Source: Nemertoderma westbladi
Lineage: Eukaryota; Animalia; Xenacoelomorpha
Assembly (NCBI GenBank): GCA_032718475.1
Contig: JAUCBJ010007130.1
Span: 35,686 to 99,685 of the forward strand
Length of the DNA: 64,000 bases
Direction of reading: 5' to 3'
Positions 30,001-55,585 of this stretch are shown here, piece by piece. Made by a program: the position numbers and the translations under genes. Each line of letters opens with the position of its first letter. The first letter of the stretch is position 1. The notes beneath the pieces were generated by a model that was not told the DNA's origin, did no database searches, and saw only the letters and a program-made list of their open reading frames with translations.

Positions 30001-30878
30001 ACAGCTTTCTATTAAGCTTACGACGACAGATCGCTCGCTTTGGCACTAGTAACACGATGAGATCTGATAAGGGAACCAACTTCATTGGTGCCAACAATGA
30101 AATCAAAGCTTACGTCAAAGATTGGAACCAAAGACAGGTGGATGACCAACTACGAGTAACAGCGTCTAGTTGGACCTTCAACGCCGCCGACGCCCCTTGG
30201 TGGGGAGGAAGTTGGGAGAGATTAATAAGAAGCGTGAAGACAGCATTTCATTTTATAGTGCCTTGCCGCGCTTATCTCACCGACGAACTTTTGCGGACGT
30301 TAATGGAAGAAATCGCCGCCTATCTCAATGAGAGACCGCTTATGCCAGTCTCATCGAGTCCCGATTCCCTGGAAGCGCTAACACCCGTGCACTTCCTACT
30401 GAAGAAACCTGTAGCCATGCTCCCACAATCGGAAATCACAGACGGAGACGAATACTGCCGACAAACTTGGCAACTCATGCAGTTGTTATCCCGTCGTTTC
30501 GCTGACCATTTCGAAAAACATTATCTGCCCACGCTACAACTTCGAACTAAGTGGTTTGCGCAGCAAGAAAACGTTAGCGCTGGAGACATGGTTCTTATTG
30601 TGGATGTAGATCTTCCACGTAAGAGGTGGCAGACAGGTCGTATCATCGAGACCCACATCTCGGATGACGGTTTGGTGCGATCGGTAGAACTCGTCGTCAT
30701 GCGACGTAACTTCAAGAAACCGGGAATTGTCTTCGAGACGCAGCAGCTCAACCGCCCGGTGGGACGTTTATGTTTACTGGAAAGAGACAGAGAACTCTCC
30801 GGAAACTATGGGAGACAAGATACTCTTCCCACGACCACCTCCCTAATCCAACAAACATCTAGGGACTCCACAACTTAA
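27056..30878 (+). pseudogene. pol: Element A pol (RT-RNase H-integrase), duplicate copy 1
   Basis: YMDD RT, RNase H and DDE integrase motifs; AAG>TAG nonsense at 29925-29927 absent from copy 2. Confidence 0.92.
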
Positions 30879-33198: not shown

Positions 33199-34464
33199 TG
33201 TACGCGCTTTTGAAGACCTTTAGCAGTTTAACCTGCCAAAATTTATATGTCTTTTGGTTTATATATAGACTCTAGAAGATGACAATATTTAATACCAATA
33301 AACACAACATTAGCAGAAGCCAGCCTAGTGCGCGTCCATTCACCCGCTGGATATTCCCGGGAGACTGGATTCTGAGGGCTTAGATTATTATTGCAGTGAA
33401 GCTTACTGTATTATTCGATTGATCGTTAATAAATAATTTCTGACTAATATTATTCACTTTCGGGAAATATTAACAGTTCCTTTAGGACGTGGCGCTCTAT
33501 CTAAGTAAACAGAGATATGACTTATACTAATCACAACGGTAAGTCGATAAGGCTTATGATTCACGTATGAGGCGCATTCTTTAGGAAATGCTTAGTTATC
33601 AGCCACAATCATGCACACTACCGGTAACACACAATACTGCTCACTAATTTGCCGACCGTCAATGAATTTTATCATATATAAAGAGAATAGCAACGGACCA
33701 ATGTAGTGCTTATCAAACAGCATTAAATTCAATACACACCACAATAATATAAGTCGCAATCGCTATATATATAACCCGCCTCTCTAACCTGTAGTGTATC
33801 AAGAAAATTGGGAAATTTGGGTTCTTTATAAACGTTCTCCAAATAATCTTCAATCAACTGATATAAAATATGACAACAGTAAACACATTAAGACGGTAGG
33901 TTAAGATATGATATGAACCGATATGTACAGTGATATGAGTTGAGTGTCCAAATTGTGCCGTGAATTAGACTGATAACAGTCATACGCTCTATAATATTAA
34001 GCCTACTAATGTTTCTTTCTAGAGCCGTTGTTTCTGGCTTAGACAGCAATAACAACAAAGCATCAGTCCAAAAAACAGTAAGACTGAACACTCCCAGTAT
34101 GATCGGCTCAAAGCTCCACATCGACAGAGAAAATCGCTCTGATTGGCTGAAGCCAAACAAAGAACCATGCGTCCAATGGCTGTTTCCATTTAAGCAACCA
34201 GCTGTTAGATGTCGTAATCTGAATCATCACGGCTAAGCTGTGTAAAAGTATTTGCCGTATTGCGGGTTTTTTGCCTTACCATGTCCGCTAAAACACGTAT
34301 ATAGAAGAATGACTTTTATGTCCGTTAAAAACACCTGTAACGGTACCTTGCGGGCAAGGGGAATATATATACAGTTAGAGAACCCTTTTAGAGTATTCCA
34401 GCGCCTAGGGGGAAACTGGATTGCGAAGCAAAGGGGCCAGTTATATCCCACAGAAGCTTTTACA
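33199..34464 (-). repeat. Duplicated 5' LTR of element B
   Basis: Copy of 25784-27049 at +7415, same PBS and CTCCTC flank. Confidence 0.93.
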
Positions 34465-34470
34465 CTCCTC

Positions 34471-36972
34471 AGACAACGACGATATACATCAACTTTTTGA
34501 TGAGGAGAATGCCATCAATCTCCTTAAGGAAAGCGAGACTTGGCAAAATCAAGTGAACTTATGTCAACTCCTTCACCCATCTGAGCGAGACGACTATAAC
34601 GACGAGCTTAATGACGTCATTGAACGTTGTAATGCCAAGACTCGGGATGAACATGCCGTGAGATTCTTTACTCAAGAGGTCGTAGAGCCCAACTCCTACG
34701 ATAAGGCCCTATCGGTGGAGGAAGAAAGAGCCAAGCAGATCCAAGCGACAACTACTCGTTTTCTTAAAGATCAAGGTAGGTATGAGATCGGACTTCCTTT
34801 CCGAAAGCGAGAACCAAAGTTTATTAACAACAGACCTTTGGCGGAGAAAAGAATTGCTCAACTACATCGACGCCTTACAGCAAATTCTTCAGCTAAAGAA
34901 ATGTATAAAACACAGTTGAAGAAGTTTATTAGCAAGGGATATGCGGAGCTAGTACCGGAAGAAACCCCTATAACTGAGAGAACGTATTACTTAACTCACC
35001 ATTCCGTTCCCAAACCCGGTAAACCCCATGAAGTACGAGTGGTGTTTGACGGTTCCGCCCTTTATATGGGCCAATCTCTTAATTCTGAATTGTTACCCGG
35101 ACCCAACTTACTTCAATCCTTGTTGGGAATACTTTTAAGACTAAGACAATATTCCATTGCTTTCGCCTCAGATATAGAAGGCATGTTCTTACAAGTCAAA
35201 GCGCTGGATAGGGATCGAGATAGCCTACGATTTTTGTGGTGGCCTGAAGGAGACCTCAATAAGAAACCGGTGGAGTACTGGATGACCATCCAAGCTTTTG
35301 GGATAATCTCGAGCCCTTCAAACGCCTGTTCCGTGGTGCGCACTACTGCAGATGACAACCGAGACGCCTTCTCTAAAGAAGTGATCGACAATATCAAACG
35401 AGACATCTACATGGACGATAATCTGAAGTCCCTTCCATCAGTCGAAGAAGCCATTGAGGTCGCTAAAGGAACGGTAGAATGCTTAAAGAAAGGTGGATTT
35501 CGATTAACTAAATTCACCAGCAACTCCCGTGAGTTTCTGGAGTCAATCCCGGTAGAAGATCGAGGAACAAAAGACCTAGATCTAATAAAGGATGATCTCC
35601 CAGAAACTAAGACCCTTGGTTTGAAATGGGACACAGAAAGAGATATCCTGTTTTTCCAACTAAAACAGCGAGATAATCCAGTTCGGACTAAACGGATATG
35701 TTTAAGTATCCTGAGCACTTATTTCGATCCATTGGGATTTATTAGCCCAGTTATATTGATTGCTCGGAGTCTAGTACAACAAATGTGGCTTGAAAACCAC
35801 TCATGGGACGATCCACTTAAGGGAGAATTATTAAAGAAATGGATGAAATGGGAAGATTCTCTACCAGCCATCGAAAACTTCATAATTTCCCGTTCATATT
35901 TTGGTCATGTTCTCCCTACGTATTCATATCAACTCCATGTGTTTGGAGACGCCAGCGATATGGGAATAGGTATAGTAGCCTACCTAAGGGTGGAAACTCC
36001 GGACGGAATCAAAGTTGCCTTGGTTACTTCTAAGGCATTAATAAACAACAAGTTGAAAGTTCCTCGAGCGGAGTTAAAAGCGGCTCTATACGCTACAGCT
36101 ATCGGCCGGAATGTAACAGAACAGATCGACTATCGCCTGGAGAAAACTGTATATTGGACCGACGCTTTACTCGTGTTGGAGTATATAACCAATGAAGTCT
36201 GTCAGTTCAGCGTCTTCGTTACCAACAGAGTAGCTATTATACTCAGTCGCACGACGATGGATCAATGGAGACATTGCCCCGGAACGATTAATCCAGCGGA
36301 CATCGCTTCCCGGGGAGCAACCCCACAAGAACTGGTAGATACTCCAGACTGGTTAGGTGGACCCGACTTCCTCTACAAAGAAGAAGAAGAATGGCCTCCT
36401 CATCTTACTACAGCAGAAATTAGACAGGCCAAGGGAGCGGAGAAAGTCAAACCTAAAACTCAGGCGAGTAAATCGAAGTTATTCAAACCCACAGTAGATC
36501 TGTCTGTACTACATACTTCCGGAGACGACGCTTTGGATCAGAAACCCACAGCCACAAATAAACTCGTTGTGGAAATCCGTGATAAGGATTGGAAATCTGG
36601 CATACCTGACATCTCGCAAGGACTCTCACCTCTTCTGCAGAGAGCGATACATCACTACAGTTCTTGGAATCGGCTTTGTAAGGCCTTTACATATTTAAAG
36701 AGATGTTTTCACCATCACTACTCTAGGATGAAAACAAAGGGTGATACCGCTCCAATCACATCAGTGCAGGTCCATGTTATTAAAGACATTCCCAAATATA
36801 AGGTACCCGACAAGTTTCTGAAGGAGAAGATCAGTTATCAGGAGCATGAAGAAACCAACAAACAGATGCTGAGACTCTTACAATGCTATGAAGATTCCGA
36901 TAAGTATTTCCTGTTGTTGAGAAATCCACAGATGCGCTTAAGGGATCGTTTCTCTAGCACAATGATAGATGG
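34471..36972 (+). pseudogene. pol: Element A pol copy 2, RT-RNase H part, interrupted by element C
   Basis: Near-identical to 27056-29557; frame broken at ...STMIDG by the C LTR. Confidence 0.92.
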
Positions 36973-37509
36973 TGTGACGGGATCCAAGAGGGATCCCGAT
37001 TTATCCGGTTGTGGTAATTTAGTCCACGCGTCCCCGCCGTGTATAAGGATGAAATAAAGTGACTGAGTTCTGAAGTTCGGTGTATAATAGGAAGTTATAA
37101 GATATAGATATTGTGAATGTGTACAAGGCGGGATACGGTAACTAAAGTCCCGTGATCCCCTAACTAAACTAATTGGCTGTACCCTACGCTAGCACTGCTG
37201 CACTTGAGATAACTGAATCACTGATTAATAGGTTATTGGTTATATTGCACGGTGGCCTTACTGCTACTCAATCGATGCCGTTCCCCCCTCTGATTGGTTA
37301 ATACCCTTGTTGGCGCCCCGTGGAGTATTCCCGTTAACTCCACCTGTTCTCCTTGGGTTAGGGGTTTGGCCCCTGACCCTCTATTGTGTGCTTCCTTCCC
37401 ATTCTTATTGGGATGGCGCGAGTTGGTTAATTACCCAATCTCGCGGCTCCCAATATTGCTTATCGGCTAATAACTTTATGGGGTGTTGGCGGGATTGAAT
37501 AAGCTAACA
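36973..37509 (-). repeat. 3' LTR of element C
   Basis: Direct repeat of 47088-47624; adjacent to PPT. Confidence 0.95.
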
Positions 37510-38222
37510 CTCCCCCCCATGCTATCTTCCCGGTAAGAAGATAGCATCAACCAAAAAAAGTGCGCTACAATCCCGCTGGATCCCGATCTAGCATCGGGTG
37601 TGGGGTGGAAATCTTTTCTCTCGGAGTCGGCTTTCCGGGCCGCTCCCTCTGGGTATGATAACGCTACCCTTTACGCCTGGCGTCTCATGTCGGGCCGATC
37701 GCGCTCACCTCTTCACGCGATTTTTGTTTCCCCAACACTTTCGCCCTATCTCACCTTCACTCTCACCCTAACTCTCTCATACCCCCGGACCTCCTCGTCC
37801 CTTACTCAGCCTCTCATTCTCCCCCCCACACTAGGATTGCGTTCGCACTCTCTCCGCACTTCACTCTATCACTCTTATTCCGATTCTCAAGTCCACTTTG
37901 ACTGTTTTTATCTCTCCTGACGAACCTCCCCCCCCTCTCGTGCCGCCGCACTCAAGAAGTGTGAAATTGTCAGTTGTCTCGTCCATAGTGCCATAGTCAT
38001 TGTCCCCCAGTCCCAGTAGCTAGTTGAGAAAGGTTGTATGACTATAGTACTTACTCCAAACGTATATATTTTACTGCTAATCACTACGTACGTACATACG
38101 AATTGCACTTATATAGTTATTTGCATTAATTAAATTTATATTTAATAGTTCGTACGTTACATGCGGCGCCTTCCAGGCGCACCACCTCCCAGTCTCAGTC
38201 TCATTCCCTCGCCTCCGGGAAC

Positions 38223-40757
38223 TCATCTGTACCTCCTCACGTCCTCCTCCCTGGCCCGTTTCTTGGTTATCACTGTTCCTCTGGCATCATCCGCTTTCTG
38301 CTTCCGGACCTTCGCTGCCACTTCCTTGCTGATCCCGGTCGTCGGCTCCTTGGGCGCTGGTGTTATTAAAGCCCGATACCGCTTCGCCGGTGGCCCCTCA
38401 GAATGGCCTGGTTGTTTCCCTCGTGTGGCGTCCCATAGGATCATCTTCATTGCCTTTGGTACGTGTTCCGCCAAGAAATCCCTAAACTCCCTCCGGTTCT
38501 CTGGTGTCCACCTGTCCAGGTACCGTTGCGTGTTCATAACTCCGGCGAACGATGCCGCCGTAGCTACCTCTTGATAGGTAAACGGTAACCTTCGCTTTAT
38601 GATTTCCATGTGGGTCTCCTGGTTTATGAGGAAGAAACCCCACTTGAACTCTTGGGCCTTCATGCGCTGGCGCGTCATGGCCCCGACGTCGGCCCACTCC
38701 TCGAACCTCGTGAACTTCTCCTCGTCGCTCATCCAGTCGCACTCGCGTCCGTAGTGTCCCCGAAAGTGGCACTTTGGACATCGGTTATGCAACCGTGGAC
38801 ACGCCCCCATCCTGTGACTTGGTTCTCTACAATAGAGACAAAAGGTTCCCCGTTGGAACCGGTATAGGCAGCTGCTTTCCTGATGGGTCTGTCTCCCACA
38901 GTAGTCGCAGCCGAGTACCAATGTCTCGCGTCCCACCTCGTCCTTCGTCCCAAGCGATCTCCGCCGTCTATGGAGTCGCTGGTAGGCGAACTTCTCTACG
39001 TTGCTCTCCCTGTTTACGTCTATCTCTCCGCCCCTCTCGGGCATCGTCTCCCCGAATACTATCCGTGGTGCCGTCCCCGGTTGCTCGCCCAACCTGATGG
39101 TGCTCCCCGCGAAATCCATCGCCGGCCCCTCGTGCACCCAGGTCCGCTTGCCGGATCTGTTCCAGAAGGCCCTTGCCCCACTGGCCGTCACCACCCTTCC
39201 GCCAACCCAGTCCGTGTCCGAGTGGCCTATCCTTTCGATGGGCGGTATCTCTCCGAATTCGTCGTCGTCGTCCTCTTCTTCCGGTAGCGTCTCCAATCCC
39301 GGTATCCCGATGGATCCACTATGTCCCTTCCCGCCTTGGCTCTCGCCGGTAGCTCTCCATCCCTCTAGCTCCCTTAACTTCCTTGGCAGTTGGTCGCCCT
39401 CGGCGCCCGCTGGTATGGGCATCGTTTGCAACCCCGACGTCGACTGTTTCGGCGATCCCACCGTCCATCCCAATTCTCGTCCTAGAGACTCCCCCGAACT
39501 CCCTGACGAAGTCCAATGAAGCTCGTCTAGACCCGCCTGTTCCTCGAAGCCATAACTCTGTGTCCTGGCCTCCTCTTCCCTCTCCTCTGCTTCTATCCTC
39601 TCCCGTCTGGCGACTTCTTCCAGTCGCTTTGCTTCCCGTCTATCCATCTCTAGCTGCTCCCACCTCTGATACGGTGTATCTGTCTCCCCATCTACCAGAT
39701 GTCGGCTGTTGTAGTACACCGACTCGCCCTTCAGCCCCGGGTGGTCTACCAGACCGTCAAAGGCCACTTTAAAGGCTCTCCTGTAGCTTAGGGGTGATCC
39801 CGATAACAGAAATGCCCCTGGTTCTCTTTCGATAACTACGGTCATGAATAAGTTAAGTAAACTTATCATCATCCAGTCCTCCTGCAGGATATATCGCTTC
39901 TGATATACCTTTATCGCTCCTCTGCGAAACTGATATACCTCCTGCTTTCCCGGTCTCGCTCCCCACTTCAGCGAGTTCGCTAGTTCTGCTCCGTATTCTT
40001 CCCTAAACTTCCCCCAATCCATTGGTTTGTGGCATACGAGCCCCAATAATTGGCCCATCGCCACCGCCCCGCATTGGCCTGAGTTCTCGACCACCCCCAA
40101 TCCATCCGGTGCCGTCATAGCCATAAAGACTTTCTGCATATCCAGGAGGTTGGTGGCGTCCGGACCGATGATCCTCTCCGCGTCCTCGCGAATCGCCGAT
40201 CCCACTTTCGTCGTCGACTTCTCTCTTACTAAGACCTGTACCGCTTTCGGCAGTCGGTCTAATTTCGGCCCGTCCTTCTTCCCATACGTCCCTAAGTCGA
40301 ATAAGAAGATGTCCCCATTTGGCGCTGCCAAATGCAAGAGTATGGTCCTGGCCGACCCTGCCGTTCCTCGTCTCGAACCCGCTTCGTCTTCCACGGTTCC
40401 CTCGTCATCTAGGATCATATATCCTCCTCTGTTGACGGACTCTATGAATCTTTTCCAGTCCTTCCTCGGCGATTCCCTCGGATACTTCGGAATCCCGAAC
40501 TTCGCCTCGTCTCCTTTCACCACGTAGTGGAAGTGTTGGAAGATCGCGTTGTCCAGCGACGGCGTCCCGTAGGTCCCGACCAACCGCTGTTCGTGCGCCT
40601 CCCGGAAGTGATCCTGCAGCGCTCGTGCCGCGTGACCCCTTTCCAACCTCTCGTAGTATCCTCTCGTCTTCTCCTCCGGGTGTCTTTCGGTGAAATCCAC
40701 CAATATTTCTTTTCCTCCTGACTCCGCCTTTCTCTTCCTGACCAGCTTACTCGCCAT
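38223..40757 (-). CDS. Accessory protein of C: DEDDy (WRN/Mut-7/EXD-like) 3'-5' exonuclease, acidic linker, three CCHC knuckles and basic tail
   Basis: ExoI ILDDEG; LLHLAAPNGDIFLFDL; LPKAVQVLVREKSTTKVGSAIRED (ExoII); LLDMQ; ExoIII-like YQKRYILQED; CDYCGRQTHQESSC, CLYCREPSHRMGAC, CPKCHFRGHYGREC; uninterrupted ORF of about 844 aa from the first ATG. Confidence 0.8.
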   Translation of the reverse strand: MASKLVRKRKAESGGKEILVDFTERHPEEKTRGYYERLERGHAARALQDHFREAHEQRLVGTYGTPSLDNAIFQHFHYVVKGDEAKFGIPKYPRESPRKDWKRFIESVNRGGYMILDDEGTVEDEAGSRRGTAGSARTILLHLAAPNGDIFLFDLGTYGKKDGPKLDRLPKAVQVLVREKSTTKVGSAIREDAERIIGPDATNLLDMQKVFMAMTAPDGLGVVENSGQCGAVAMGQLLGLVCHKPMDWGKFREEYGAELANSLKWGARPGKQEVYQFRRGAIKVYQKRYILQEDWMMISLLNLFMTVVIEREPGAFLLSGSPLSYRRAFKVAFDGLVDHPGLKGESVYYNSRHLVDGETDTPYQRWEQLEMDRREAKRLEEVARRERIEAEEREEEARTQSYGFEEQAGLDELHWTSSGSSGESLGRELGWTVGSPKQSTSGLQTMPIPAGAEGDQLPRKLRELEGWRATGESQGGKGHSGSIGIPGLETLPEEEDDDDEFGEIPPIERIGHSDTDWVGGRVVTASGARAFWNRSGKRTWVHEGPAMDFAGSTIRLGEQPGTAPRIVFGETMPERGGEIDVNRESNVEKFAYQRLHRRRRSLGTKDEVGRETLVLGCDYCGRQTHQESSCLYRFQRGTFCLYCREPSHRMGACPRLHNRCPKCHFRGHYGRECDWMSDEEKFTRFEEWADVGAMTRQRMKAQEFKWGFFLINQETHMEIIKRRLPFTYQEVATAASFAGVMNTQRYLDRWTPENRREFRDFLAEHVPKAMKMILWDATRGKQPGHSEGPPAKRYRALITPAPKEPTTGISKEVAAKVRKQKADDARGTVITKKRAREEDVRRYR

Positions 40758-41259
40758 TCCGAACACTACACTCGCTCACCTGTAGGGTGGTGCCTTACCA
40801 AGGCGCAATACAGATGAGTGATGTATTAAGATGTTTCCTACAGTTCGATAATGGCCTACTTTTCTACTTAACTGCGCCTTTCAAGCTTAATTTAATCTAA
40901 TTAATTTCGGAGCTAGTAAATCAGCCTAATTTACAATTTCCGTCCGTTACTTTTATTATGTTCTAGAACGACTTTCTTTGTGTTACCATTATTTTTCGAT
41001 TTTTTTTAGCCCTATTCTATTTATTTTATTTGATTCTACTGTCCTAGTACTTACTACTGCCTATGGATTTATTCTATTCTCTCTCTGATCCATATTCTGG
41101 CCTACTCAGTGGGCCTATGCAGTACAGCAGTATGCGTCGTGTGGCCACACGATTTATCCAGCTGCACTCATATGCCCCCCTCTCGCTACTAACTCCACTT
41201 ACTGCTAACTAATATCTATATCCTATTTTACCCCTTTTACCTCTTACTCTCTCTCTCTA

Positions 41260-43310
41260 ACTAATGGTACTACGTACCCTCTAACTCTAACTCTAACTAG
41301 GTACTACGTACCTACTAGCTCTAACTCTAACTAGGTACTACGTACCTACTAACTCTAACTCTATCGGTACTACCTACCCTCTAACTCTAACTAGGCATTA
41401 CGTACCCTCTAACTCTAACTAGGTACTACGTACCTTCTAACTCTAACTCTAACTAGGTACTACGTACCTACTAACTCTAACTAGGTACTACGTACCTTCT
41501 AACTCTAACTCTAACTAGGTACTACGTACCTACTAACTAACTAACTCTAACTAGGTACTACGTACCTACTAACTCTAACTCTATCGGTACTACCTACCCT
41601 CTAACTCTAACTCTAACTAGGCATTACGCACCCTCTAACTCTAACTCTAACTCTAACTAGGTACTACGTACCTACTAACCCTCTAACTATCGGTACTACG
41701 TACCCTCTAACTAACTAACTCTAACTAGGTACTACGTACCTACTAACTCTAACTCTCTACTAAGTCTAACTAACTCCTACTAACTTTCTACTTCTACTAA
41801 CTCTACTTGACTCCTCTGAGTCTACCAACTCTGCTAACTAGCTCTACTAACTCTACTCCACTAGCTCTAACTACGTGGCGCTTGCGGTGCCCACAACCCC
41901 TTTACTATATGGCACCCTATGTGCCCTCTCTGCTCTACTCTACTACCTGGCACCCTATGTGCCCTCTCTACTACACTACTACCTCTCTAACTCTACTACC
42001 TGGCACCCTATGTGCCCTCTCTACTCTACTCTACTACCTGGCACCCTGTGTGCCCTCTCTACTACACTACTACCTCTCTAACTTACTACCTGGCACCCTA
42101 TGTGCCCGTCTCTACTCTTCTACTCTCTGGCACCCTATGTGCCCGTCTCTACTCCTCTACATCCCCTTTACGTCTCATCGCCTACACGTGACGCTCTGAG
42201 TGCCGGGAGAGTGGGTACGTTAATTATGTGAACTACTACTGACTCTACTAACTCTCTTCTAACTCTACTAACTCTTTTTGTGCCCGGCACCTCTTGTGCA
42301 CGGCACCTTCTAACTCTACTAACTCTCTACGTGGCGCTAACGGTGCCCACAACCACAACCGGTACTACGTACCCTCTTACTAACTCTACCTCTATCTACG
42401 TGGCGCTAACGGTGCCCACAACCACAACCGGTACTACGTACCCTCTTACTAACCTCTAACTCCCACTAACTCTAATTAACATACCCTGCTCTTACATCAA
42501 ACACATCATCACGCCCGTGCCCCACTAAGTTCAGCGCATTCCCTTCTAACTCTAACTACGTGGCGCTTACGGTGCCCACAACCCTCTACTGCTACTACTA
42601 ACACCCCTAACTAGCGGTACTACGTACCCTCTTACTACTCTAGCTCTCTCTACTAGCTAGCGGTACTACGTACCCTCTTACTCTTACTAACTCTCTAACG
42701 GTACTACGTACCCCTTAACTCCTACTCTCTAACGGTACTGCGTACCCTCTAACTCTTACTCTAACTCCACTAACTAACGGTACTACGTACCCTCTAACTC
42801 TTACTCTCTAATCGGTACTTACGTACCCTCTAACTCCTACTCTCTAACGGTACTACGTACCCTCTAACTCTAACTCTATCTAGGTACCACGTACCTACTG
42901 ACTCTCTAACTAACTCTAGGTACTACGTACCTACTAACTCTAACTCTAACTAGCGGTACTACGTACCCTCTAACTCTCTTCTACTAACGGTACTACACGT
43001 ACCCTCCTACTAACTCTTCTACTAACGGTACTACACGTACCCTCCTACTAACTCTTCTACTAACGGTACTACACGTACCCTCCTACTAACTCTTCTACTA
43101 ACGGTACTACACGTACCCTCCTACTAACTCTTCTACTAACGGTACTACACGTACCCTCCTACTAACTCTTCTACTAACGGTACTACACGTACCCTCCTAC
43201 TAACTCTTCTACTAACGGTACTATACGTACCCTCCTACTAACTCTTCTACTAACGGTACTACACGTACCCTCCTACTAACTAACTAACTAACTAACTACC
43301 TAACTTCTAC
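41260..43310. repeat. About 2-kb strand-biased minisatellite/hairpin array inside C, including eight 38-bp tandem units at 42981-43281
   Basis: CTCTAA/CTAA spacers separating GGTAC-TAC-GTACC and GGCAC-CCTAT-GTGCC mini-palindromes; unit CTACTAACGGTACTACACGTACCCTCCTACTAACTCTT. Confidence 0.92.
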
Positions 43311-43336
43311 CTACTCTATTATTTAATTATTTTTAA

Positions 43337-46300
43337 TTAAATAATTATTTTATATTTTGTGCGTGGGAAGGGCGTCTCGCCCTCATTCCCACCCCCCTCA
43401 GTCCAAAACTTTGGACGACTAAAAACTCTCACGTGCCCCTTCTTCCGGTAGGCACTCTCCTGCTGCCCTCCTATACGTCCTCTAACTCTTCGCCACACTC
43501 TCTTCGGTGCCACCTTTGCTGGCCTCCCCCTTCGTATGTGCGCTGGCATTAAAGCCCTCGACGACCCCCGCTCGTCCCTCGGTATACGCGGTGTCTGCCC
43601 GTGCAATGCCCCCTCGCACTGTGTCCGTCCTGCGTGTGTATGCAACACGCCTCCTTCTACTTTCCCGACTCCCTTATGTTTGCTCATGGGCTTCTCTGCC
43701 CCTGGTCTAGTCCTTTCATATCCTCTCCCTTTCCAACACTCTCCGGATCTGTGTCCTTTTACCACACATCGATGACATAGTCCGTTTGCGTCTGTGTAGG
43801 CTACACGATCTCGTTTGGGCAACGCTTGCCAGTACTTGCAACTCCTGGTCTTATGGGTTCCGTCCCGATGTAATTGACATTGGAATCCTGGATTATAGCG
43901 TTTCCTGTATAGTCCTTCACGTATCGCGCTTAGGTTTATATGTACCGATTTAATGTTTTGGTTGTCTAGACTCGGCCTACTGGGTATATTGGGATTGTGT
44001 TTATTTTTGGTGTTATTTTCTTTCTGTCCCTGCCACGGTGTGGCCCTGCTCCCACCTAACTGTGGACTAGCAGTCCCCTGTACGGCCGCGTGTGGTGGTG
44101 ACTGTCCGCACGACCTGCTCTCGTCCAGGGAGTTCGATGTTCTTGCTCCTATCGGGGTATATTGTCGATATTGTGATGGGGGAATGTCACCCTGTCCCCC
44201 CCCGGCCGGTATGTTTGGTACTGGGGTTGATGTTAATACATTGGGGCCCATACGTCTATCTCCAATAACTCCCCCCTCCCCTGGATATATGTTATGTCCC
44301 TGTGTATTATAGTCATGCTGCTGTACCGATATAGGCCTACCTACCTCTCGCCTACCTACCGGTATGTACTCCGCGACTTCCGGGTTTAATTCCGTCGTTC
44401 GCGCTACCCCATCGCCTACTCTATCTCTCCCAGCATGGCCTATAATAGTATGTGCAGTAAGGCCTACAGTATGTCCTGCAGTCTGCATGTGCCCTTCCGA
44501 ACCGAAGTTTATTCTTCGCGAATCTCGAATCTCCCCGCGACTACCGTACTCTCGATCGGCAGCTATATCCCGTCGGGAAGCTTCTCTTCGATCCCCTCTC
44601 CTGTTCTCGTCTTCGTATCTGGTACGTCCTGTACCCCTCTCTTGGCGTGCGGTGCGTTTCTCCGGGGCGACGGCAATCTCCCGAAGTTCGACCCCACTGA
44701 CTCCCTAACTCCATCTCTACTATCGACGGTCCGTTATCCGTCCTCGCACTCCTATCGTTCGTGGCGACACTTCTTCTACTATCTTCTCTTCTTCTCTTTT
44801 CTGTGTAGTATTCCGGCTCGTGAGGTCTCTCGTCGACCTCCCGGTTAAACTCCACTGTTCTTCTTCCCTCTTCTGGTCGGGCTCGACGCTTCGTCTGCCC
44901 TCTCGCGACGTCAACCTGCCTCTCTCTGCTCGATCGCACGCCGCTGGGGATACTCGCAATCCCCCTATTACTCTCCGTCGCCGGCTGTTGCGGTTTACCT
45001 ATTTCGGCCCTCGCATTATCCGCTGACGGCTGTGGGACACTCTCTGCCCCCCCTCTCTCTCTACTAACTTCTCGCGGTGGGGTGTCCGTAGCCCCCCCCC
45101 ACCCGCCACTTCTAACTTCACTACCTCTTACTACACTTCTACACCCCTCTTGTGGGGCATTCTCTGCCCCCCCTCTCTCGCCACTAATCTTATGTGGTGG
45201 GGCGCCCGTAGCCCCCCCCCACCCGCCACATCTAACTTCACTATCTCTCACTTCGTCTCTACACCCCTCTCTAGTCGACGCACTGTCTCTACTACGGCTG
45301 GGTCTATTCACCCCCGCCTCTCTCTCTACTACTGCGTGGCCCATCAGGCCTACTTCGGGTTGGCTCAACCCCGCTTCCTCCTGCCTACCAACTACGTGGC
45401 CTACCAGGCCGCCGTCGGGTTGGCTCAACCCTGCCACTTCCTGCCTACTAACTACGTGGCCTACCAGGCCCTCGTCTGCTGAGTTATGTACGTCCGACAC
45501 GCTCATATTAATAGCACCATTCCCAATATTATTTGTTAAATCAATTAAATTATTAGAATTTGAAACAGGATTATTATTTAAATTATTTAAATTACTTAGA
45601 TCACTACTATTCTCTAGACTTAAATTATTATCCGAATTATTTTGCGGGTTTGAATTGAAATTATTATTTAGAGTATTTGTATTTAAATTTAAATTACTAC
45701 TACCCGGTAAAATATTATTTCCTGTAATAAAGGGATTAGGGTTATTTACTACGGTACTATTAACATTAACTGTCTCTAACGTACTACTACTACACCCCCC
45801 GCCCGTACGGCTACACCAGTTCTGGTTCTCCCGCCCGGTGCCTGTAAGTGGGGGCTCACTCTCTGATATCTCCAACCGCGCCAGTTCTAGTCGGCGCCGT
45901 TTAAGTTTGGCCCGATATTGCGCAAGCAGCGCCAGTCGGTCAAGCAAAAGATATCGCTCACGCTTTTGCTTTAACTCTCTCTCTCCGCACTCTCGGGACT
46001 CTCTCGCAAGCATCCCAGGCTGCCTCGCCGGCTCGCTCTCTATTCTCCCGGTTATTATCGCGATATGCTCCCGCTCTCTACGCTCCTCGGCCCTCTCTCT
46101 ATCCTCCCTTACCAACTCTAATAATGCGGTTTGCTCTCTCAATTGCCCCTCTAACTGTTTCCGCTCTGCCGCCGCCTTTTCTAATTTATACGCCACGCGT
46201 TCACTCTCTCGCACCCTTCTTTCTTTTGCGGAGGATGTAGCAGACTTATCGGTTGCGACGGACTCCCGTCGCCCCTCCGTCCTACTAACTTTCCCCCGCT

Positions 46301-47007
46301 TCCCGGAACTTCCTCCGACCGACGAGACCGAATCCTCGGAGTTAACCTCGGATTCGCCCTCCCCAGGTCTCTTCCAACCCACTAACCTAAATTCCCTGGC
46401 ATCGACTAAGTATGGCCCTATGTACACTACACCAGGCCCCATACCCCTACGTTCCCATAGTTTAAACAGTTCGAAGGCAACCCCTCTCGCTCTCTCCCTG
46501 GCCAGTTCTCCCTGCCCAGAACGCACTAGGTGATCAAAGTATCTGTTCGACTCACCTAGTCGTCTCCTCAGTCTCACCTCGTCTATCTTCGCCCCTCCTT
46601 TGGCCTCTCTCAGTTGCTCCCGGGTCGCGAGGTAGGCCCGTCGAAGTCGATCAGAAACCCCGACGTCCTCGTCGCCGACCTCTCCTCCATCTCTCCGGGT
46701 CCGACGTCGTACCGACGGCCCCACCGTCGCCGTTCCGGTGGACCGTTCGTCGTCCTCGGCCTGTGGCTGACCGGTGACATCGGTATGTCGACCCTCGCTC
46801 CGCGTCGACTCGTCTTTCTCTTCTCTCCGTCTCGCTCTCTCTCTCTCTTGGCTCGACTTCGGGTTCCAGGCCCTCCTCGTCCTGTGCTTCCGGTTCGCCC
46901 GTTATCGATGGCTCCGGCGTCGTGGGCCTGTATCGTTTGGTCGCGGCCTCGCGGATCGTTAGGTCTTCGTCCGGGGTCCGCGTCGGTGTCTCGCCCGATT
47001 CACTCAT
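43337..47007 (-). pseudogene. Gag-like ORF of C, split into three frames (46651-47007, 44541-46724, 43337-44488)
   Basis: Begins just after the 5' LTR; coiled-coil and low-complexity regions; C-terminal CQLHRDGTHKTRSC...LCHRCVVKGHRSGEC resembles Bel/Pao Gag knuckle spacing; apparent frameshifts near 46750 and 44710. Confidence 0.6.
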
Positions 47008-47087
47008 CTCGTTTGCTCGATGGAGTTCGACTAGCTAGGGTGGAGTTCTTTGAGTTTAACTAGGGGCGGCAGCTCGGTTTTAGTTAC

Positions 47088-47624
47088 TGTGACGGGATCC
47101 AAGAGGGATCCCGATTTATCCGGTTGTGGTAATTTAGTCCACGCGTCCCCGCCGTGTATAAGGATGAAATAAAGTGACTGAGTTCTGAAGTTCGGTGTAT
47201 AATAGGAAGTTATAAGATATAGATATTGTGAATGTGTACAAGGCGGGATACGGTAACTAAAGTCCCGTGATCCCCTAACTAAACTAATTGGCTGTACCCT
47301 ACGCTAGCACTGCTGCACTTGAGATAACTGAATCACTGATTAATAGGTTATTGGTTATATTGCACGGTGGCCTTACTGCTACTCAATCGATGCCGTTCCC
47401 CCCTCTGATTGGTTAATACCCTTGTTGGCGCCCCGTGGAGTATTCCCGTTAACTCCACCTGTTCTCCTTGGGTTAGGGGTTTGGCCCCTGACCCTCTATT
47501 GTGTGCTTCCTTCCCATTCTTATTGGGATGGCGCGAGTTGGTTAATTACCCAATCTCGCGGCTCCCAATATTGCTTATCGGCTAATAACTTTATGGGGTG
47601 TTGGCGGGATTGAATAAGCTAACA
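47088..47624 (-). repeat. 5' LTR of element C
   Basis: 537 bp; followed on the sense strand by GTAACTAAA (47079-47087), complementary to LTR positions 47253-47261. Confidence 0.95.
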
Positions 47625-47629
47625 GATGG

Positions 47630-48950
47630 GTTGATACGTGTTGGAGGAAGGTTAACGAATGCCCCATTATCCTTTGATACTAAGTTCCCCATACTCATTA
47701 GAAATCTTGAAATACAAGTCAAGATGATTGTAGATGTTCACAGCAAACTTTATCATGCTGGTAGAGAACGAGTTCTTAGCGAAATTCGAACTCGCTATTA
47801 TTTTTATAAACCCCGTAGAGCTCTGAACCAAGTTCTTAGGAACTGTATACCCTGTAGGAAAGCATTCAGTAGGCCTTTAACACAGAGAGAGGCAGAATTA
47901 CCTAGGGAACGAGTAAGCTTTTATGAACCACCCTTTACTAATACCGGTGTGGATTTATTTGGCCCTATTGAAGTATATCGTGCTAGGACTATAGTCAAGA
48001 GATGGTGTGTAATCTTTGTTTGTATGACTTGTAGAGCCATCCATCTCGATATGGTGAACGATTTATCTACCAACAGCTTTCTATTAAGCTTACGACGACA
48101 GATCGCTCGCTTTGGCACTAGTAACACGATGAGATCTGATAAGGGAACCAACTTCATTGGTGCCAACAATGAAATCAAAGCTTACGTCAAAGATTGGAAC
48201 CAAAGACAGGTGGATGACCAACTACGAGTAACAGCGTCTAGTTGGACCTTCAACGCCGCCGACGCCCCTTGGTGGGGAGGAAGTTGGGAGAGATTAATAA
48301 GAAGCGTGAAGACAGCATTTCATTTTATAGTGCCTTGCCGCGCTTATCTCACCGACGAACTTTTGCGGACGTTAATGGAAGAAATCGCCGCCTATCTCAA
48401 TGAGAGACCGCTTATGCCAGTCTCATCGAGTCCCGATTCCCTGGAAGCGCTAACACCCGTGCACTTCCTACTGAAGAAACCTGTAGCCATGCTCCCACAA
48501 TCGGAAATCACAGACGGAGACGAATACTGCCGACAAACTTGGCAACTCATGCAGTTGTTATCCCGTCGTTTCGCTGACCATTTCGAAAAACATTATCTGC
48601 CCACGCTACAACTTCGAACTAAGTGGTTTGCGCAGCAAGAAAACGTTAGCGCTGGAGACATGGTTCTTATTGTGGATGTAGATCTTCCACGTAAGAGGTG
48701 GCAGACAGGTCGTATCATCGAGACCCACATCTCGGATGACGGTTTGGTGCGATCGGTAGAACTCGTCGTCATGCGACGTAACTTCAAGAAACCGGGAATT
48801 GTCTTCGAGACGCAGCAGCTCAACCGCCCGGTGGGACGTTTATGTTTACTGGAAAGAGACAGAGAACTCTCCGGAAACTATGGGAGACAAGATACTCTTC
48901 CCACGACCACCTCCCTAATCCAACAAACATCTAGGGACTCCACAACTTAA
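47630..48950 (+). CDS. pol: Element A integrase (remainder of pol copy 2)
   Basis: HHCC, GVDLFGP, SDKGTNF, WERLIRSVK, DUF5641-like tail; resumes exactly after TSD GATGG. Confidence 0.92.
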
Positions 48951-50594
48951 CAACGGCTGGAGTGGGTGTGTGACCATATTACTTTATATTTATATTTGTT
49001 TTATTTTTATATTTCTGTATGTATTATTGTGTAATTTTATTTTAATCGTTTTATTTAATTTTATTTAGTAACATGTTATTTTAGTGATCATTTAGTAGAT
49101 TAGTGCAATATATTAGTGTTTATTACGTACGTAATTACTTATAATATATATTTAGTGCGACGGCGAGAAATAATTATTTTTCTCTTTCCTTACTGTCCGT
49201 ATCATATTATAAATACGTGACTACAGTAAGATGAAATATCCGTACTTATTAAAGTACAATAAAGCCACTACTATATTCAAGTATTATTGGTAGGCAGAGT
49301 ATTAGGAATGCAAAGTTCAGATCCTCGTGTCTCGGCTAAACCAAGCTCTGGGTAGACCTTGGAAACGACTTGCCTCTTCACACTGACATTGCTTCGTGCG
49401 ATATTGCTCTCATACCGTATATTAAATAATACATATAGTAGCGTGATGTCCCTTTAACAGTAGCGTATAACGCAAAATAAATCTGTTAAACCCTTTGACC
49501 ATCTGTAATTCTAGTCGATTAAGATATCGCGGCACCCACCGATATACTTGAAAGACAAAATTCTAGAATCAATGGTTAACGTCCCCAGACAAGTTCTGGA
49601 ATAAACTGGTGCCCATCCTAAATATTAATTATTAATATTTACAAAAATCTGTAAAATTCAGATCCTTTAAAATTCTAGCCGATTAAGATATCGTAGCACT
49701 TACCGATACTCTTAAAAGGACAAAATTCCTAGAATCAAGGATCCCAGTCCCCAGACACGTTCTGGAATAAAATTGTGTCCATTTTAATATTAAATAATAA
49801 AATTTACGGGAATAAATTTAAATTCATATATTTCAATGAATTTAATAAATTGTCATTTTATACAATTTATAACATTCCCAAAATTCCATTAATTAATAGA
49901 TCATGGGAGCAGAGATTCACTCTATTAAGTGTATTTGTGTGCGAGAATCTCCAATGTATAGTCAATAGCCGATAAAATTCATAGAATCATGTATAAAGGG
50001 GATATTGACCATTAAAGAATTACTATTAAATAGCATCCCAGATCTGTATGCATGAGAATTACCCTAATTCTACCGCTAGCTTTCCATAATGTCACCATAG
50101 CAACAACCACGCTAGAATTAGAAGTGAGTTAAAAGAACAATAGAAAGCATACCCCATTGAATAGCATAGGGAATAAATAGCGCACTGCTAGTATCCAAGG
50201 ATACATAATAAATACAGTGACATTCTGGAAGGTACTGACTAACGGACAAATGGCCCGAATGTGTGCAGTTTGTTGCAGTTGTGTTGAATTTGTGCGTTTG
50301 TAGGTGAATGTTACTACTAAAGTGTGTTTACAGTAGCGAGTCGCAATCGTGAAAGTAACCCTAACTCTCCAAGAAGAACCTGCAGTACATCTAAGCCTTT
50401 GGGACGGACAGTGAAGTGACTTGTGCCGGTTATCGTTGTCGTTGTGTAGCTACATCGTTGGCGAAAGCACAGCGACGACGGTACATCGGCGCTGAGGATC
50501 TTACACTGTCCGGGGGCAAAAGAGGGGTAGGCAGCGACGCCCGCTAGCCTAATATATATAGACTCATTATAATATTGATAAACTCATAGCAGAT

Positions 50595-53500
50595 ATGACT
50601 GAGTTGATAGAAGATGATCTTGGCATCAGGGAGCGATATACTCTACCTTTACAAGCGTTTGTCGATAGCTTGATACGCGGCGACGCTGGTCCAACTACTA
50701 CGGAGGATGATGGTCGTTATATCGAACCGTCGATCTCCCCGGAGCAACTTACGCGTGAATTGGACTATAGAAAGTTCACCGCTCGCTATACGCATCGTAA
50801 TGGTACGTATATGGACTTCTTAACTACCGGCCACCCTATCAATTTACACGATACGGACGATGTGGATACCGAAAGGGAAATGGTTTTATTTCAATATCAT
50901 ACCCAACGGAATCGGAACGATAAGCCAAGAATAGAACACGAGAACTCTATTCGAAACCGACTCGAAAGAGAAGACGTTGAAGAACCGGATAAACGCAACG
51001 ACTTCAACGATTATCTGGAATTTTTGAGAGAAACATACCTCAATATCGCCAGTCAACAAAATCTCGAAACTCGATATCCTCAAGGTATACATCATGATCC
51101 TATGATAGAACTCAAACGACTCTATTTCACTATGATGTATCTTACCGCCGATCGACCGCTACCTGTTGTCCCAGATAGCTTCGAACAGATGGAGGAATAT
51201 TGTAAAACTGGAGAACGATCACCCGCGTTTCCTCTGCAGGACATGCGTCTTTGGTATTACTGTGACGAATGCCCTAGACCCAATCAGCAAATGGAAAGAC
51301 ATAAACATCCGCGGAGACGTTGCGCTAAACACAGTTTTACACGATATACTTACGGGAGTTTCGAGCAAAACCTGTTCGACGTGTCCCCTGCGGTCGCTCG
51401 ACTCAAGCGATCCTTGAACAAACCGATGATCAGAGTTCCGGAATACTCGGTCAGACCTCCGCATTCCTCAGTTAGACCTCAAACTCTTGACCCTAATAGT
51501 ATCACGGATCCTCCCGAACTGTACTCACTGTTCAAAGATCTAGTGTTACCCGAACAGTTGATCGGTGGCACTCCGGTAATAGGCTCACAAGACATTCGCC
51601 AACCCTATCTAGCTGGATTGGGACGTGGTCATCTAATATCGCCGTTTAACCCATACAACCGTCCCGGCTTCACCTCTATCCAACCCGTTACGGAAGTCGA
51701 AGAGAGCGTCGTACGAAACGCATTAGACGCTATTTGGCAGAAAATCGGAAAGGGAACGTACGATTGTTTGGAGAAGCGTAAATTGCAGCAACAAGTCCAA
51801 GCTGTGAAGGAATTAGCTTTACCCCAGTTCGATAGAGAAATACAAAATCTCGAGGAGGACATCGAACGTGGACGAACCTACTCTTTACAAGAGTTTCTAG
51901 ATGAGCGTCTACAACAACAAGCGGAGGAGAATCAGCTCGAGGAGAGACATATAGAACTGGATGAGAGAGAAGAAGCGGCTTTAGCTCAACCAGAAGCGCA
52001 AATCCTTATGACGGATCTCTACTCTAAAACCATTCTTCATCCCTCGATGGTTCCCCATTTTGGAGACAAACTTTTTGCGACGGCACAACCCCAACCGGTT
52101 GATATCAACCTAAGATCTCGCGATCTTATCGCCGACGCTCCTCTGTTGCAGCGTCCGCCCATCGAACCCGCTCGTGTCGATGGTATACTCGTTGAACCTC
52201 CGGACAATAGAGCAGATCTTGTCCGTCGCATGGTACACGATGTAAACATACGCGCTAGACCTTTACCGGACTCGTTTTATGGGATCAAAGATCACCCTTA
52301 TTACGTCAATCTAAAACAATATTACATGGTAAAACCGGAAGATCCTACACATAGTCTGAAGTTTCTACCGTTAATAAATCCTCTCGATCTTGTCGAACTC
52401 GAACAACTGCAGAAACATCTGGATCAGTTAGTTAAAGTAAACTCGTTTCGAAAACCATATAATGTTTCCAGAATAGAGAAAGAAACAATACCTCCATATA
52501 ATCTTGATGGATTCATCAAAACTCGTTTAGTGCACTGGAATCTTGATGTGTTATTCGAGGAGGAAAGAATACAACGATATGGAGATGTGGAAACATATAC
52601 CACACAATATTTAAAGTATAAAGACCTGCCTAATGCTAGCGAATGTGCTACCTTATGGCATCCTGTGGGAATGACACTCGAAAACGCCACTAAAGAGTGG
52701 AACGAAACTCTTAACGTTATCGAGATGTATGGAGTTGTCACTTACGATAACGAAGGTAGCGTTCCGGTTGGAGAACTTGGAACTACGCGGATGATACACA
52801 TACGAGGACTCGCTGGTTCTACCCACGTATTTACTCGAGCGTGTTCCGACGTTATTGATTATTCTTTTGAAACTCTTACTGAGATACAAAAGAAACTCCG
52901 ACATGGACAATTTGAACTCGCGCAGCGTTACGTCACCGACACCGAGCGCAAGCCGGCTATGGGTCGATGTTCGATGGATCGATGTTACCCCAACCCGTGC
53001 TCGAGATGCTGTTTAACGAAGGAATCCTTAAAATCGGCTCAGCTGTTTATGGAGACCTACAGAACGACTTTTGGAATATGGAGAACATTCCATACCCCTT
53101 CGTTGATACTCAGCTGATTGCTCCTTGGGCAGAAGGCCGAGGTTTCTTCCGCACTACGTATGCCAATACACCCAGCGGAATTACCAAAGTACAACGAACC
53201 TCCATCGGACATCTTGCCTTTCAAGAATACGGATGGAATTTCAAGGTTGGAAATCCTATAAATTACCAACAAGTATACGGAGATCATTATTCTCGTTTAT
53301 ACTTTGATGGACCATTGACCGCACCTGGCGCCGTGTATAGCTTTATGAGTGTTCCACTTCGTCCCTCCTTAGCTATATACACGATCTTTGAAAACGCAGC
53401 ACTTGCCGGTTGGCTAGCCGATGTGTGCAGTCGTACCATACGCGCCCATCCTTTAATACTTGGAACCAAACTCGCCAAGTTAGATGAACACAATAAATTC

Positions 53501-54853
53501 ATCCGCTTTGAATGTTTCAGGCGCTTTCTGACTCCGTTCCGTAACGTGGATAGTCAGTTCAAGGACCGCGCTCTGACCAAACTCAGCCTGAGAGACTCAG
53601 CGGCGGAGAAGCTAAACAGCGCGGGATTTGCCCTTTTTCAGAACGTTTGTATACAGAACTTGCACTCATCTGTTATACAAAGACCCCGAATACCCGCGGG
53701 TTATTCTGTCGTCGGAGTTCAGACAGTGGGTCCGCTTGCAGAGACAGCCGCACCTAACTCAACTATGCAATTGGAAGACGAACCAATATGCTTAGAAGCT
53801 GAAGCGATTCAGCCTATAGCGCCCCGGAGCAGCGATAACGACTACGTCTTAGAGTGGTATCAAGGTTCACAATGTCTCACCGCATACGATTATCGACACG
53901 CTAGCTATGTTTCTCGAAAACGTTGTCGATTATGCGCATCGAGAGACCATTTCACTCCTATGGACTCAGACGTACCCTGCTCCTATTTCCACGATCAACC
54001 AATGATGGAGATATATTGTGCGTATTGCAGACTTAATAACTCTCATATTTTTGCAGTCTGCCCCCAATTTATGACTCAATGCCACCACTGTCAACTTAAA
54101 GGACATGCCAGTTATAATTGCCCCTTTAATCACGATTTAGAGAGCGTAGATGAAATGATTACCCTGCGCTACATTCGAGCTTGGGAAGCGAACGCGGATT
54201 TACATTGTGAGTCCCGTCATCGATACTACCCTGGACGCTCTTACGAGGGAGTTTACGCGTTCCATCCTTATTTATTAGCGTCTGTGGAACAAAAAACACG
54301 CGTACCGAGTTACGAGCTAATGAAGCGTGTTGGTGAGTGTATTTCCACTAAATTTGTTAGAAGATACCTTAGGAACGTCAATCCTAACGATATTACTTCA
54401 TACCATTTAATCAATTATATCCGTCAAGACCCTGAGTATGGCGATTTATTTATCAACTCGCACCCTGAGTTACAGGAAGTATCTCGACGGCCCTACGAAT
54501 ATCGAGCCCGAGAACGCGAGCTGGAAAGAACTATTAAACCAAGGAAGTTTCTTATCACCCACGGTCCGCCTACCGCCATTGCCCAGACGACCCGTCAAGG
54601 ACCCGTAGGAGCTGCTGTCCTGAGGCGCGCCCTAAAGGCTGTTAGACCTCGCTCCACGGAAGTTGATATCGATCAACCAGGTACCTCGACCGGCGGATAT
54701 ACCGATCGCAATCCGAAACCTTCTGATGCAATTGTATTGCACCCTTCACCCAGGAGTTACAGCCCTCCTAGTAAAGTGGCTCGCCCCAAAGAGAAAAGGA
54801 CTCTTACTAGCCTCAAAAAACTGCGTAAACGCCGTCCGCGTAAGAAAGACTAA
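50595..54853 (+). CDS. Accessory ORF2 of A (about 1419 aa, one frameshift near 52830-52970): unknown N-terminal region, DEDDy 3'-5' exonuclease, triple CCHC knuckle, NLS-like tail
   Basis: ExoI VTYDNEG; LPQPVLEMLFNEGILKIGSAVYGD; FVDTQ; ExoIII-like AIYTIFEN; CRLCASRDH..C, CAYCRLNNSHIFAVC, CHHCQLKGHASYNC; KKLRKRRPRKKD end; lies between integrase and PPT. Confidence 0.8.
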
Positions 54854-54931
54854 CTGTTTAGAGTATTTTTATATTTTAGAAACTGTGATTTGTTATATTT
54901 TATAGACTTAAATCCCATTTTCTGGGAGCGG

Positions 54932-55560
54932 TGTAAAAGCTTTTGCGTCATTAACCGGTTATTTTCCCTTAAAGTACTCTGTAGTTGGTTTGCCAGGCAT
55001 AAAAAGGCCGTCCTTGCTGTACTGGTGTTTTAGAGGACATAAAAGTCATTTCTTCTGTATTTGTACTGTATTTGTACTTTAGAGGACATAATCCGCAATC
55101 TCGTGACGCGATAAGCTGGATACTCTTGAAAACAGTGTCGCTACCATGACGACGGCTAACAGCTGATATTGCCACGTCAACGTTTCTTTGTTTCTTTGTT
55201 CTCTCGTTGTTCAGGTTGACCAATCAGAGCGTTTGTTGTCTCTGTGTTGGAGGTGTATACAGAACTCAGTAGTTCAGTGTTATGTTTTTTGCCCAGAGCC
55301 TAAGAACACCGGCTTTTGGCACCTCCGTGTTTCAGTCTTTAGTCTTACATTAGTAGGCTTAATTATAGAACGTATATCTGTTATCAAACTAGTTACTGAG
55401 TTAGTCACTCACTTAATAATCATTTATACCTTAACTTTACTGCTTTTACTGTCGGTTATTCATTATATTGGTTGATGAAATATTATATCGGAATACTGAT
55501 CAATAGTCAGACACCCCAACTTCTTGATATACTAAAGGTTAGAGAGACCGGTTACAGATA
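54932..55560 (+). repeat. True 3' LTR of A, first 629 bp only
   Basis: Preceded by PPT-like TCTGGGAGCGG; matches 3441-4068; ends in (ACAGATA)x5 junction. Confidence 0.92.
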
Positions 55561-55585
55561 ACAGATAACAGATAACAGATAACAG

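Follow-up and report, generated by a model that had tools for sequence, protein, structure and literature searches.

ORF3 of element X

We analysed a 64,000-bp stretch of the genome of Nemertoderma westbladi (assembly GCA_032718475.1, contig JAUCBJ010007130.1, forward-strand positions 35,686 to 99,685), referred to below as the window. Self-alignment resolved the window into nested long terminal repeat (LTR) retrotransposons: element X, element Y, which belongs to a sister subfamily and lies within the gag-pol of X, and a distinct element, Z, which lies within the pol of X (Table 1). Our subject is ORF3, the third gene of X, which occupies the position of an envelope (env) gene and probably encodes a variant 3'-to-5' exonuclease.

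By their Pfam domains, X and Y are BEL/Pao elements, the host type that the first-pass annotation of this DNA had named. X carries Peptidase_A17 (E 1.6e-36), Integrase_H2C2 and DUF5641, DUF1759 is found in Y, and the domain order of X (protease, reverse transcriptase (RT), RNase H (RH), integrase) is that of a Pao-type gag-pol. Among the 120 matches listed for its RT-RH region the closest relatives are 39–45% identical, all with PF05380, and the named sources are cnidarians, echinoderms, a mollusc, a nemertean, a tunicate and fishes. X has TG..CA LTRs, a polypurine tract (PPT) and a 5-bp target-site duplication (TSD), although its 3' LTR is truncated; the sequence CTACT stands upstream of its 5' LTR and also flanks a solo LTR in a duplicated flank. 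Y has the TSD CTCCT and LTRs that match at 1258 of 1266 positions (99.4%).

ORF3 lies on the forward strand between the integrase stop codon (48950) and the PPT and 3' LTR (54932), just where the first-pass annotation had put it. The length of about 1400 amino acids given there is correct as a read-through, since the gene is not one open frame: two overlapping frames make it up (50562-53117 and 52916-54853), and a break divides it into some 790 codons, counted from the ATG at 50595, and some 627 further codons. Searches of the N-terminal ~680 residues against Pfam and against PDB sequences yielded no family; this part is rich in Glu and Gln, with a likely coiled coil near residues 400-460, and Cys and His residues cluster around position 234 of the frame. 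The motif YDNEG precedes the break, and LPQPVLEML (52985), KIGSAVYGD (53030), a DTQ motif (53105) and YTIFEN lie beyond it. Three zinc knuckles follow. All had been called CCHC; two are near-canonical (spacings x2-x5-x4 and x2-x4-x4), the other is atypical (x2-x4-x9), and a zf-CCHC_3 Pfam match to the region falls below the cut-off. The basic tail that had been reported is indeed present and possibly serves as a nuclear signal or RNA-binding tail. Since the highest 19-residue hydropathy does not exceed 1.19 (1.3 in the corresponding protein of Z), ORF3 has no membrane segment, in agreement with the earlier failure to see a signal peptide or transmembrane segment. An envelope function was rejected on this ground.

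The non-coding spacer between integrase and ORF3 (48951-50594) is 91.6% identical between X and Y, though synonymous sites are far more diverged, and it holds a 166-bp tandem pair and a candidate splice acceptor near 50300.

An intact homologue in a pol-less element

Z is flanked by the 5-bp TSD GATGG and is very young, because its two 537-bp LTRs are identical to each other. It has BEL-like gag knuckles (E 0.005 against the gag of Y), and some 2 kb of tandem repeats occupy the place of pol, of which no remnant is left. Assigned from the gag knuckles and the 5-bp TSD, with no RT present, Z is likely a non-autonomous BEL/Pao element. It carries an intact ORF3 in which the exonuclease-like domain and three canonical knuckles are accompanied by a coiled-coil-like region, an acidic linker and a basic tail.

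Unguided alignment of X with Z pairs YDNEG with LDDEG, KIGSAVYGD with KVGSAIRED and YTIFEN with YILQED. The alignment contains 53 identities in 240 positions, a score reached by 2 of 1000 shuffles, and the knuckle regions of the two proteins also align (blastp E 6e-8). At ~22% identity the two proteins still share the D, E and D residues and the Tyr of ExoIII, and both are acidic at the fourth position. On these alignments the ORF3 of Z is a distant homologue of that of X. The Glu at ExoIII, which for the first-pass annotation made activity uncertain, is atypical as stated; because X and the distant Z have it in common, a trait of the family seems a better reading than decay. Neither this homologue nor the DTQ motif at 53105, nor the self-priming signature described below, appears in the first-pass annotation.

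The predicted nuclease domain

We consider a DEDDy-type fold very likely, and the sequence features suggest that ORF3 probably encodes an exonuclease of a D-E-D-E variant type. In both X and Z, ExoI has the form D-x-E and the ExoII Asp is followed by a DTQ-type motif, as in RNase D, and the ExoII context (KxG..xxD) resembles the WRN-like subgroup. ExoIII reads Y-x3-E in both proteins where DEDDy enzymes have Y-x3-D, which makes them variants and not canonical members. In a MAFFT alignment with 35 of the 50 bacterial PF01612 sequences of the profile described below, the D, E, K and D residues, the DTQ motif and the ExoIII Tyr of Z fall on the reference columns, Z ExoIII on the YAAxD column; X ExoIII is not placed there because the insertion in X is longer.

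Two separate ESM Atlas queries led to the same family, PF01612. The post-break half of X scored 0.91 (26 of 30 matches, shared-feature count 153) and Z scored 0.94 (25 of 30, count 173), where true family members typically have counts at the level of Z and above that of X, and where 4-10% of shuffled queries score at least 0.9. Aligned to a profile built from 50 bacterial PF01612 domains, X gave hhalign E values of 3.3e-4 to 6.2e-4, equalled by none of 60 shuffles, and X and Z were the top two of 251 window segments, at the predicted motifs, with E values (0.12 and 0.3) that are not significant. An AlphaFold model of the Z domain, built on an alignment of bacterial exonucleases, reached a predicted local distance difference test score (pLDDT) of 72. 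By Foldseek it matched TbRND (the RNase D of Trypanosoma brucei), EXD2, Egalitarian and RICE1, the first three heading the list. In a separate structural comparison several DEDDy enzymes were tied, with Z-scores of 11-13 (12.9, root-mean-square deviation 3.1, 160 aligned).

Several results weigh against this identity. The Pfam check that the first-pass annotation had recommended found no PF01612 match for the ORF3 of X or Z, in whole frames or in pieces. No exonuclease relative emerged from PDB sequence searches, from word-based homologue searches (queries Z and the post-break half of X, longer proteins only), from a HMMER scan in which the Z domain was run against 1.84 billion proteins, or from plasmid tblastn, metagenome scans and a viral contig scan; the only HMMER match, a tandem-repeat protein over 19 residues, was judged spurious. 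When aligned singly to the bacterial profile, the ExoI half of X (4 of 60 shuffles as good) and Z (2 of 60) are not clearly above shuffles. An eight-sequence WRN-like profile was uninformative, and neither X nor Z ranked among its first ten matches. Glu stands at ExoIII, the single-sequence fold model was unusable (pLDDT 33), and the fold matches of the Z model are partly circular because it was built on bacterial exonucleases. The DEDDy WRN/RNase D assignment of the first-pass annotation thus stands on motifs, two Atlas searches and a weak profile match, since no significant Pfam, PDB or HMMER match accompanies them.

Purifying selection and the frame break

Copies of ORF3 were sampled as contigs from four public runs. 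The contigs cover all 30 bins of the gene, none of them spanning it whole. Presence in other copies, which the first-pass annotation had made a test of its claim, is thus supported for many copies. At the break near 52965-52970 the spanning contigs (4, 2, 4 and 1 in the four runs) nearly all have another length than the window copy (93-100% of depth), and the break therefore looks private to the window copy. A programmed frameshift was judged unlikely for the same reason.

Comparison of X with Y over three pieces of ORF3 (122, 178 and 127 codons) gave ratios of nonsynonymous to synonymous divergence (dN/dS) of 0.13, 0.11 and 0.15, beside 0.16 for gag and 0.05 for pol. The first piece consists of the first 122 codons and the second covers the zinc knuckles. 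Because Y lacks the nuclease region, we classified variable sites among the contigs there: 31 of the best 40 of 179 sites are silent, with 12 expected from the same mutation types (19 of 23 and 12 of 17 on the two sides of the break). Over the whole gene 23 of 39 are silent against 12 expected (the best 40 of 981 sites, one outside the reading frame being dropped). Purifying selection on ORF3 of X, another check that had been proposed, is thus confirmed. None of the best 40 of the 179 sites alters a proposed catalytic residue, so that the ExoIII Glu of X is probably family-wide, although the remaining sites could differ.

The ORF3 remnant of Y (12445-13745) is without the entire nuclease region. 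A 2.8-kb deletion took it out, with its joint at 50963/53773 in X coordinates and at 13359 in Y, and contigs from two further runs, one of them filed under another organism code, have the same joint. Further large internal deletions of ORF3 were seen in contigs.

A self-priming signature

None of X, Y and Z has a TGG-type primer site; the absence of a tRNA site was judged by the missing TGG and by covariation with the LTR. Instead, the bases at the primer-site position are complementary to each element's own LTR, exactly and flush with the end of the 5' LTR. In X, 11 bases (4608-4618) are complementary to LTR bases 443-453 (3883-3893); in Y, 11 bases (25773-25783) pair with LTR bases 482-492; and in Z, 9 bases (47079-47087) pair with LTR bases 364-372. 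Dinucleotide shuffles reached the match in 1, 1 and 5 of 1000 cases for X, Y and Z, and 2 of 6343, 5 of 6734 and 7 of 3638 internal positions match equally well. Between the homologous stretches of X and Y there are two changes, each matched on both sides, and the cross-match between the elements is only 7 bases. The pairing forms in the predicted RNA ensemble of Y and of Z, not in that of X. It is likely from these matches that all three elements start reverse transcription from their own RNA, as Tf1 does.

In Tf1-type self-priming the primer-site position is complementary to the element's own LTR, the matching bases open the transcript and RNase H cuts behind them, and the available portions of two papers (PMC7175516, PMC6317226) describe, for Tf1 and sushi, the same lack of a tRNA primer site and an 11-base match of the primer site to the element's own LTR. 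According to the same portions those elements are Ty3/gypsy chromoviruses, with self-priming also proposed for some plant copia elements, whereas X and Y are BEL/Pao elements and Z is likely one. We found no BEL/Pao self-priming in print in a search that left Repbase and subscription journals outside, and the signature with its compensatory changes is a separate result from ORF3. A fourth, related LTR at 1-1007 (reverse strand, 81% like that of X) has a different sequence at the self-primer position; the primer site of its element falls beyond the window.

Precedents and related proteins

The first-pass annotation implied that a third gene of this kind lacks precedent. It does not: DEDDy ORF3s with the motif DEED, predicted to be exonucleases, are published for the Juno, Vesta and Athena/Terminon elements of bdelloid rotifers (Rodriguez et al. 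2017, PMC5408684). Terminons are also described in the available part of PMC6431247. Like the rotifer genes, ORF3 of X and Z is an RNase D-like DEDDy gene in the env position, with no membrane segment and with one Asp-to-Glu change. The rotifer genes are DEED and reside in the retrovirus-like Juno and Vesta clades, whereas those of X and Z are D-E-D-E and reside in a BEL/Pao element and a likely one; as far as the rotifer genes can be likened by description, X and Z also differ from them in length (844-1,418 residues), in the three CCHC knuckles and in the basic tail, as well as in purifying selection (X), retention without pol (Z) and the self-priming signature. The Juno and Vesta clades belong to Ty3/gypsy. 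For the rotifer ORF3s that were sequenced (env and GDSL) no departure from neutrality was shown (PMC5408684). The present data add the BEL/Pao superfamily to the rotifer elements as a carrier of probable nuclease third genes, here in a new architecture, and supply evidence of selection where the rotifer study could show none, and the intact gene of Z makes the question left open in 2017 (is the protein active, and on what?) directly testable.

Within BEL/Pao, the env-bearing elements Tas and Cer7 also have a third gene between integrase and PPT; those genes encode envelope proteins, whereas ORF3 of X has no membrane segment, and env is the only third BEL/Pao gene mentioned in the available portions of the two sources (PMC554778, PMC3118150). 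We found no exonuclease third gene of BEL/Pao in the literature, Repbase, subscription journals and the Terminon paper being outside the search.

By architecture and fold, TbRND appears to be the closest solved analogue of ORF3. Its Exo domain is accompanied by four CCHC fingers, which bind the RNA and without which cleavage is incomplete, as the available part of PMC7797062 reports. In common with ORF3 it has a DEDD exonuclease followed by tandem CCHC fingers (PDB 7c42-7c4c), and it was among the top fold matches; it differs in being a cellular guide-RNA trimmer with four fingers near the Exo domain and a canonical fourth Asp. The PF01612 proteins WRN, EXD2, Mut-7 (Nibbler), Exd1 and Egalitarian share with ORF3 the motif order, the ExoII context, the Atlas family and the tied fold matches, and X and Z depart from them in falling below every Pfam cut-off, in a long insertion between ExoII and ExoIII and in the Glu at ExoIII.

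Possible functions of the ORF3 product

We propose, with a probability of roughly 0.4 and largely by analogy, that ORF3 of X is a conserved accessory gene of its BEL/Pao lineage that would work in trans against small-RNA silencing. Its product is predicted to be a 3'-to-5' exonuclease of the RNase D/WRN type whose zinc knuckles grip RNA. Small RNAs that otherwise silence the element, or the precursors of these RNAs, would be shortened or degraded by it. As in TbRND, the knuckles might grip single-stranded RNA so that its 3' end reaches a two-metal site formed by D, E, D and E plus the ExoIII Tyr. The protein could be made from a separate, probably spliced, message and be a shared benefit, so that nuclease-deleted copies would still spread. 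From the analogy we infer an action in RNA 3'-end trimming; small RNA as the target is the least supported step. Nibbler and Mut-7 act in small-RNA trimming, and viral exonucleases serve immune evasion.

We put counter-silencing first because the domain is apparently not needed in cis and because nuclease third genes recur in other LTR lineages. The first point follows from Y, which inserted without the domain and whose LTRs are 99.4% alike, and from the other deletion derivatives that lack it; the recurrence of related nuclease genes in rotifer LTR elements (PMC5408684) suggests a general benefit. Certain facts nevertheless tell against counter-silencing. That Z has no pol and yet an intact ORF3 fits a role in cis better. 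Mature piRNA ends are methylated and protein-bound. Catalysis, expression and the small-RNA target are all predictions, and the DEDDy gene of the rotifers shows no clear link to copy number (PMC5408684).

Alternatively, the nuclease might mature the element's own primer. A piece of element RNA would pair with the 9-11 bases beside the 5' LTR, and its unpaired 3' overhang, left by a cut or consisting of the poly(A) end if the matching bases lie at the end of R, would be trimmed back to the duplex so that reverse transcriptase could extend. All three elements with a readable primer site, from two families, match their own LTR and lack a tRNA-type site; the two X-Y changes are compensatory, the cross-match falling to 7 bases; the pairing is predicted for Y and Z; the knuckles and basic tail resemble a nucleocapsid; and Z, which retains gag only, has kept ORF3 intact. 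On the other side, Tf1 needs no extra gene for its self-primer, which its own RNase H produces according to the available part of PMC7175516, the X pairing is absent from the predicted ensemble, and the comparison covers two families only. We therefore hold this role to be unlikely, and equally so the wider proposal that a self-priming BEL/Pao lineage encodes a dedicated primer-maturing exoribonuclease (D-E-D-E plus three knuckles), kept even by a pol-less element.

On a par with primer maturation, and thus also doubtful, is a weak or dead nuclease that would serve as an RNA-binding adaptor in the manner of Egalitarian, Exd1 and Maelstrom, carrying element RNA to the germ-line nucleus or shielding it and so replacing the job of the envelope. 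The Glu for Asp at ExoIII, the long coiled-coil-like regions and basic tail, and the presence of Exd1 and of Egalitarian-BicD complexes (one with I-factor RNA) among the partly circular fold matches would suit such a protein, and inactive DEDD derivatives do occur in piRNA pathways (PMC5408684). Against it, the D, E and D residues, the ExoIII Tyr and the acidic fourth residue are kept between X and Z at so low an identity, and rotifer ORF3s with the D-to-E change were judged possibly active (PMC5408684).

More improbable still is an enzyme acting on DNA in the manner of WRN or the Pol I exonuclease; ahead of integration it would proofread or shorten the ends of the cDNA, or else it would remove aberrant cDNA. 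The WRN-like ExoII context and the polymerase exonucleases and WRN among the tied fold matches (Z-scores 11-13) agree with this, and DEDDy domains proposed for 3' end processing are carried by Dada DNA transposons, according to the available part of PMC3706591. On the other side, RNA is the substrate suggested by the CCHC knuckles and the DTQ motif, the gene is separate from pol and kept by a pol-less element, and integrase processes cDNA ends by itself. Finally, a chance resemblance of motifs in an unrelated fold, or a neutral passenger with no role, would agree with the lack of a significant family, PDB or database match and with the Atlas scores of shuffled queries, and is made very improbable by the purifying selection, the convergence of two separate Atlas queries on one family and the occurrence of three motifs in order in two distant elements.

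Should the counter-silencing role be correct, a transposon-encoded small-RNA trimmer would be a rare kind of counter-silencing enzyme; should primer maturation be correct, the enzyme would represent a new step in retroelement replication.

Architecture of the window

The coordinates of the elements and their parts are collected in Table 1.

Table 1. Features of elements X, Y and Z, in window coordinates
Feature	Position	Strand	Remarks
Element X	3441..55561	+	BEL/Pao by Pfam; from 5' LTR to truncated 3' LTR
5' LTR of X	3441..4607	+	TG..CA, 1,167 bp
Primer-site position of X	4608..4618	+	
gag and protease region of X	6844..11100	+	Y inserted inside
Element Y	11101..27049	-	sister subfamily of X, nested in X gag-pol
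pol of X (RT, RNase H, integrase)	27050..48950	+	with 7.4-kb duplication and Z insertion
Element Z	36973..47624	-	distinct, nested in X pol
Intact ORF3 of Z	38223..40757	-	844 aa; env-like position as in X
Zinc knuckles of Z	38739..38909	-	three canonical CCHC
Exonuclease-like domain of Z	39822..40484	-	
Non-coding spacer before ORF3 of X	48951..50594	+	
ORF3 of X	50595..54853	+	~1,418 codons; two frames, one break near 52965-52970
ORF3 N-terminal ~680 aa	50595..52631	+	no family match
ExoI-like YDNEG (D and E)	52743..52757	+	opposite Z LDDEG and bacterial D-x-E column
ExoII-like KIGSAVYGD segment and RNase D-type DTQ motif	52985..53113	+	hhalign, Atlas
ExoIII-like YTIFEN	53378..53395	+	Glu where DEDDy enzymes carry Asp; opposite Z YILQED
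Three Cys/His zinc knuckles of X	53924..54121	+	first atypical
Basic C-terminal tail	54704..54850	+	17 K/R in last 49 aa
Short PPT of X	54920..54931	+	
3' LTR of X, truncated	54932..55561	+	625 of 628 aligned bases as in 5' LTR

The window also contains a near-identical (99.9%) 5.9-kb duplication, 23677-29557 and 31092-36972, whose copies are 7,415 bp apart, and the flank of X with its solo LTR is duplicated near-identically (1227-4610 and 55586-59708). Both are either recent duplications or assembly artefacts. Each 5' leader holds a tandem pair of ~286 bp (4968-5546 in X and 24839-25411 in Y), with additional 38-bp repeats in Y. In the gag of Y an Ala/Lys/Glu low-complexity repeat is expanded (22128-22385, reverse strand); it is much shorter in X.

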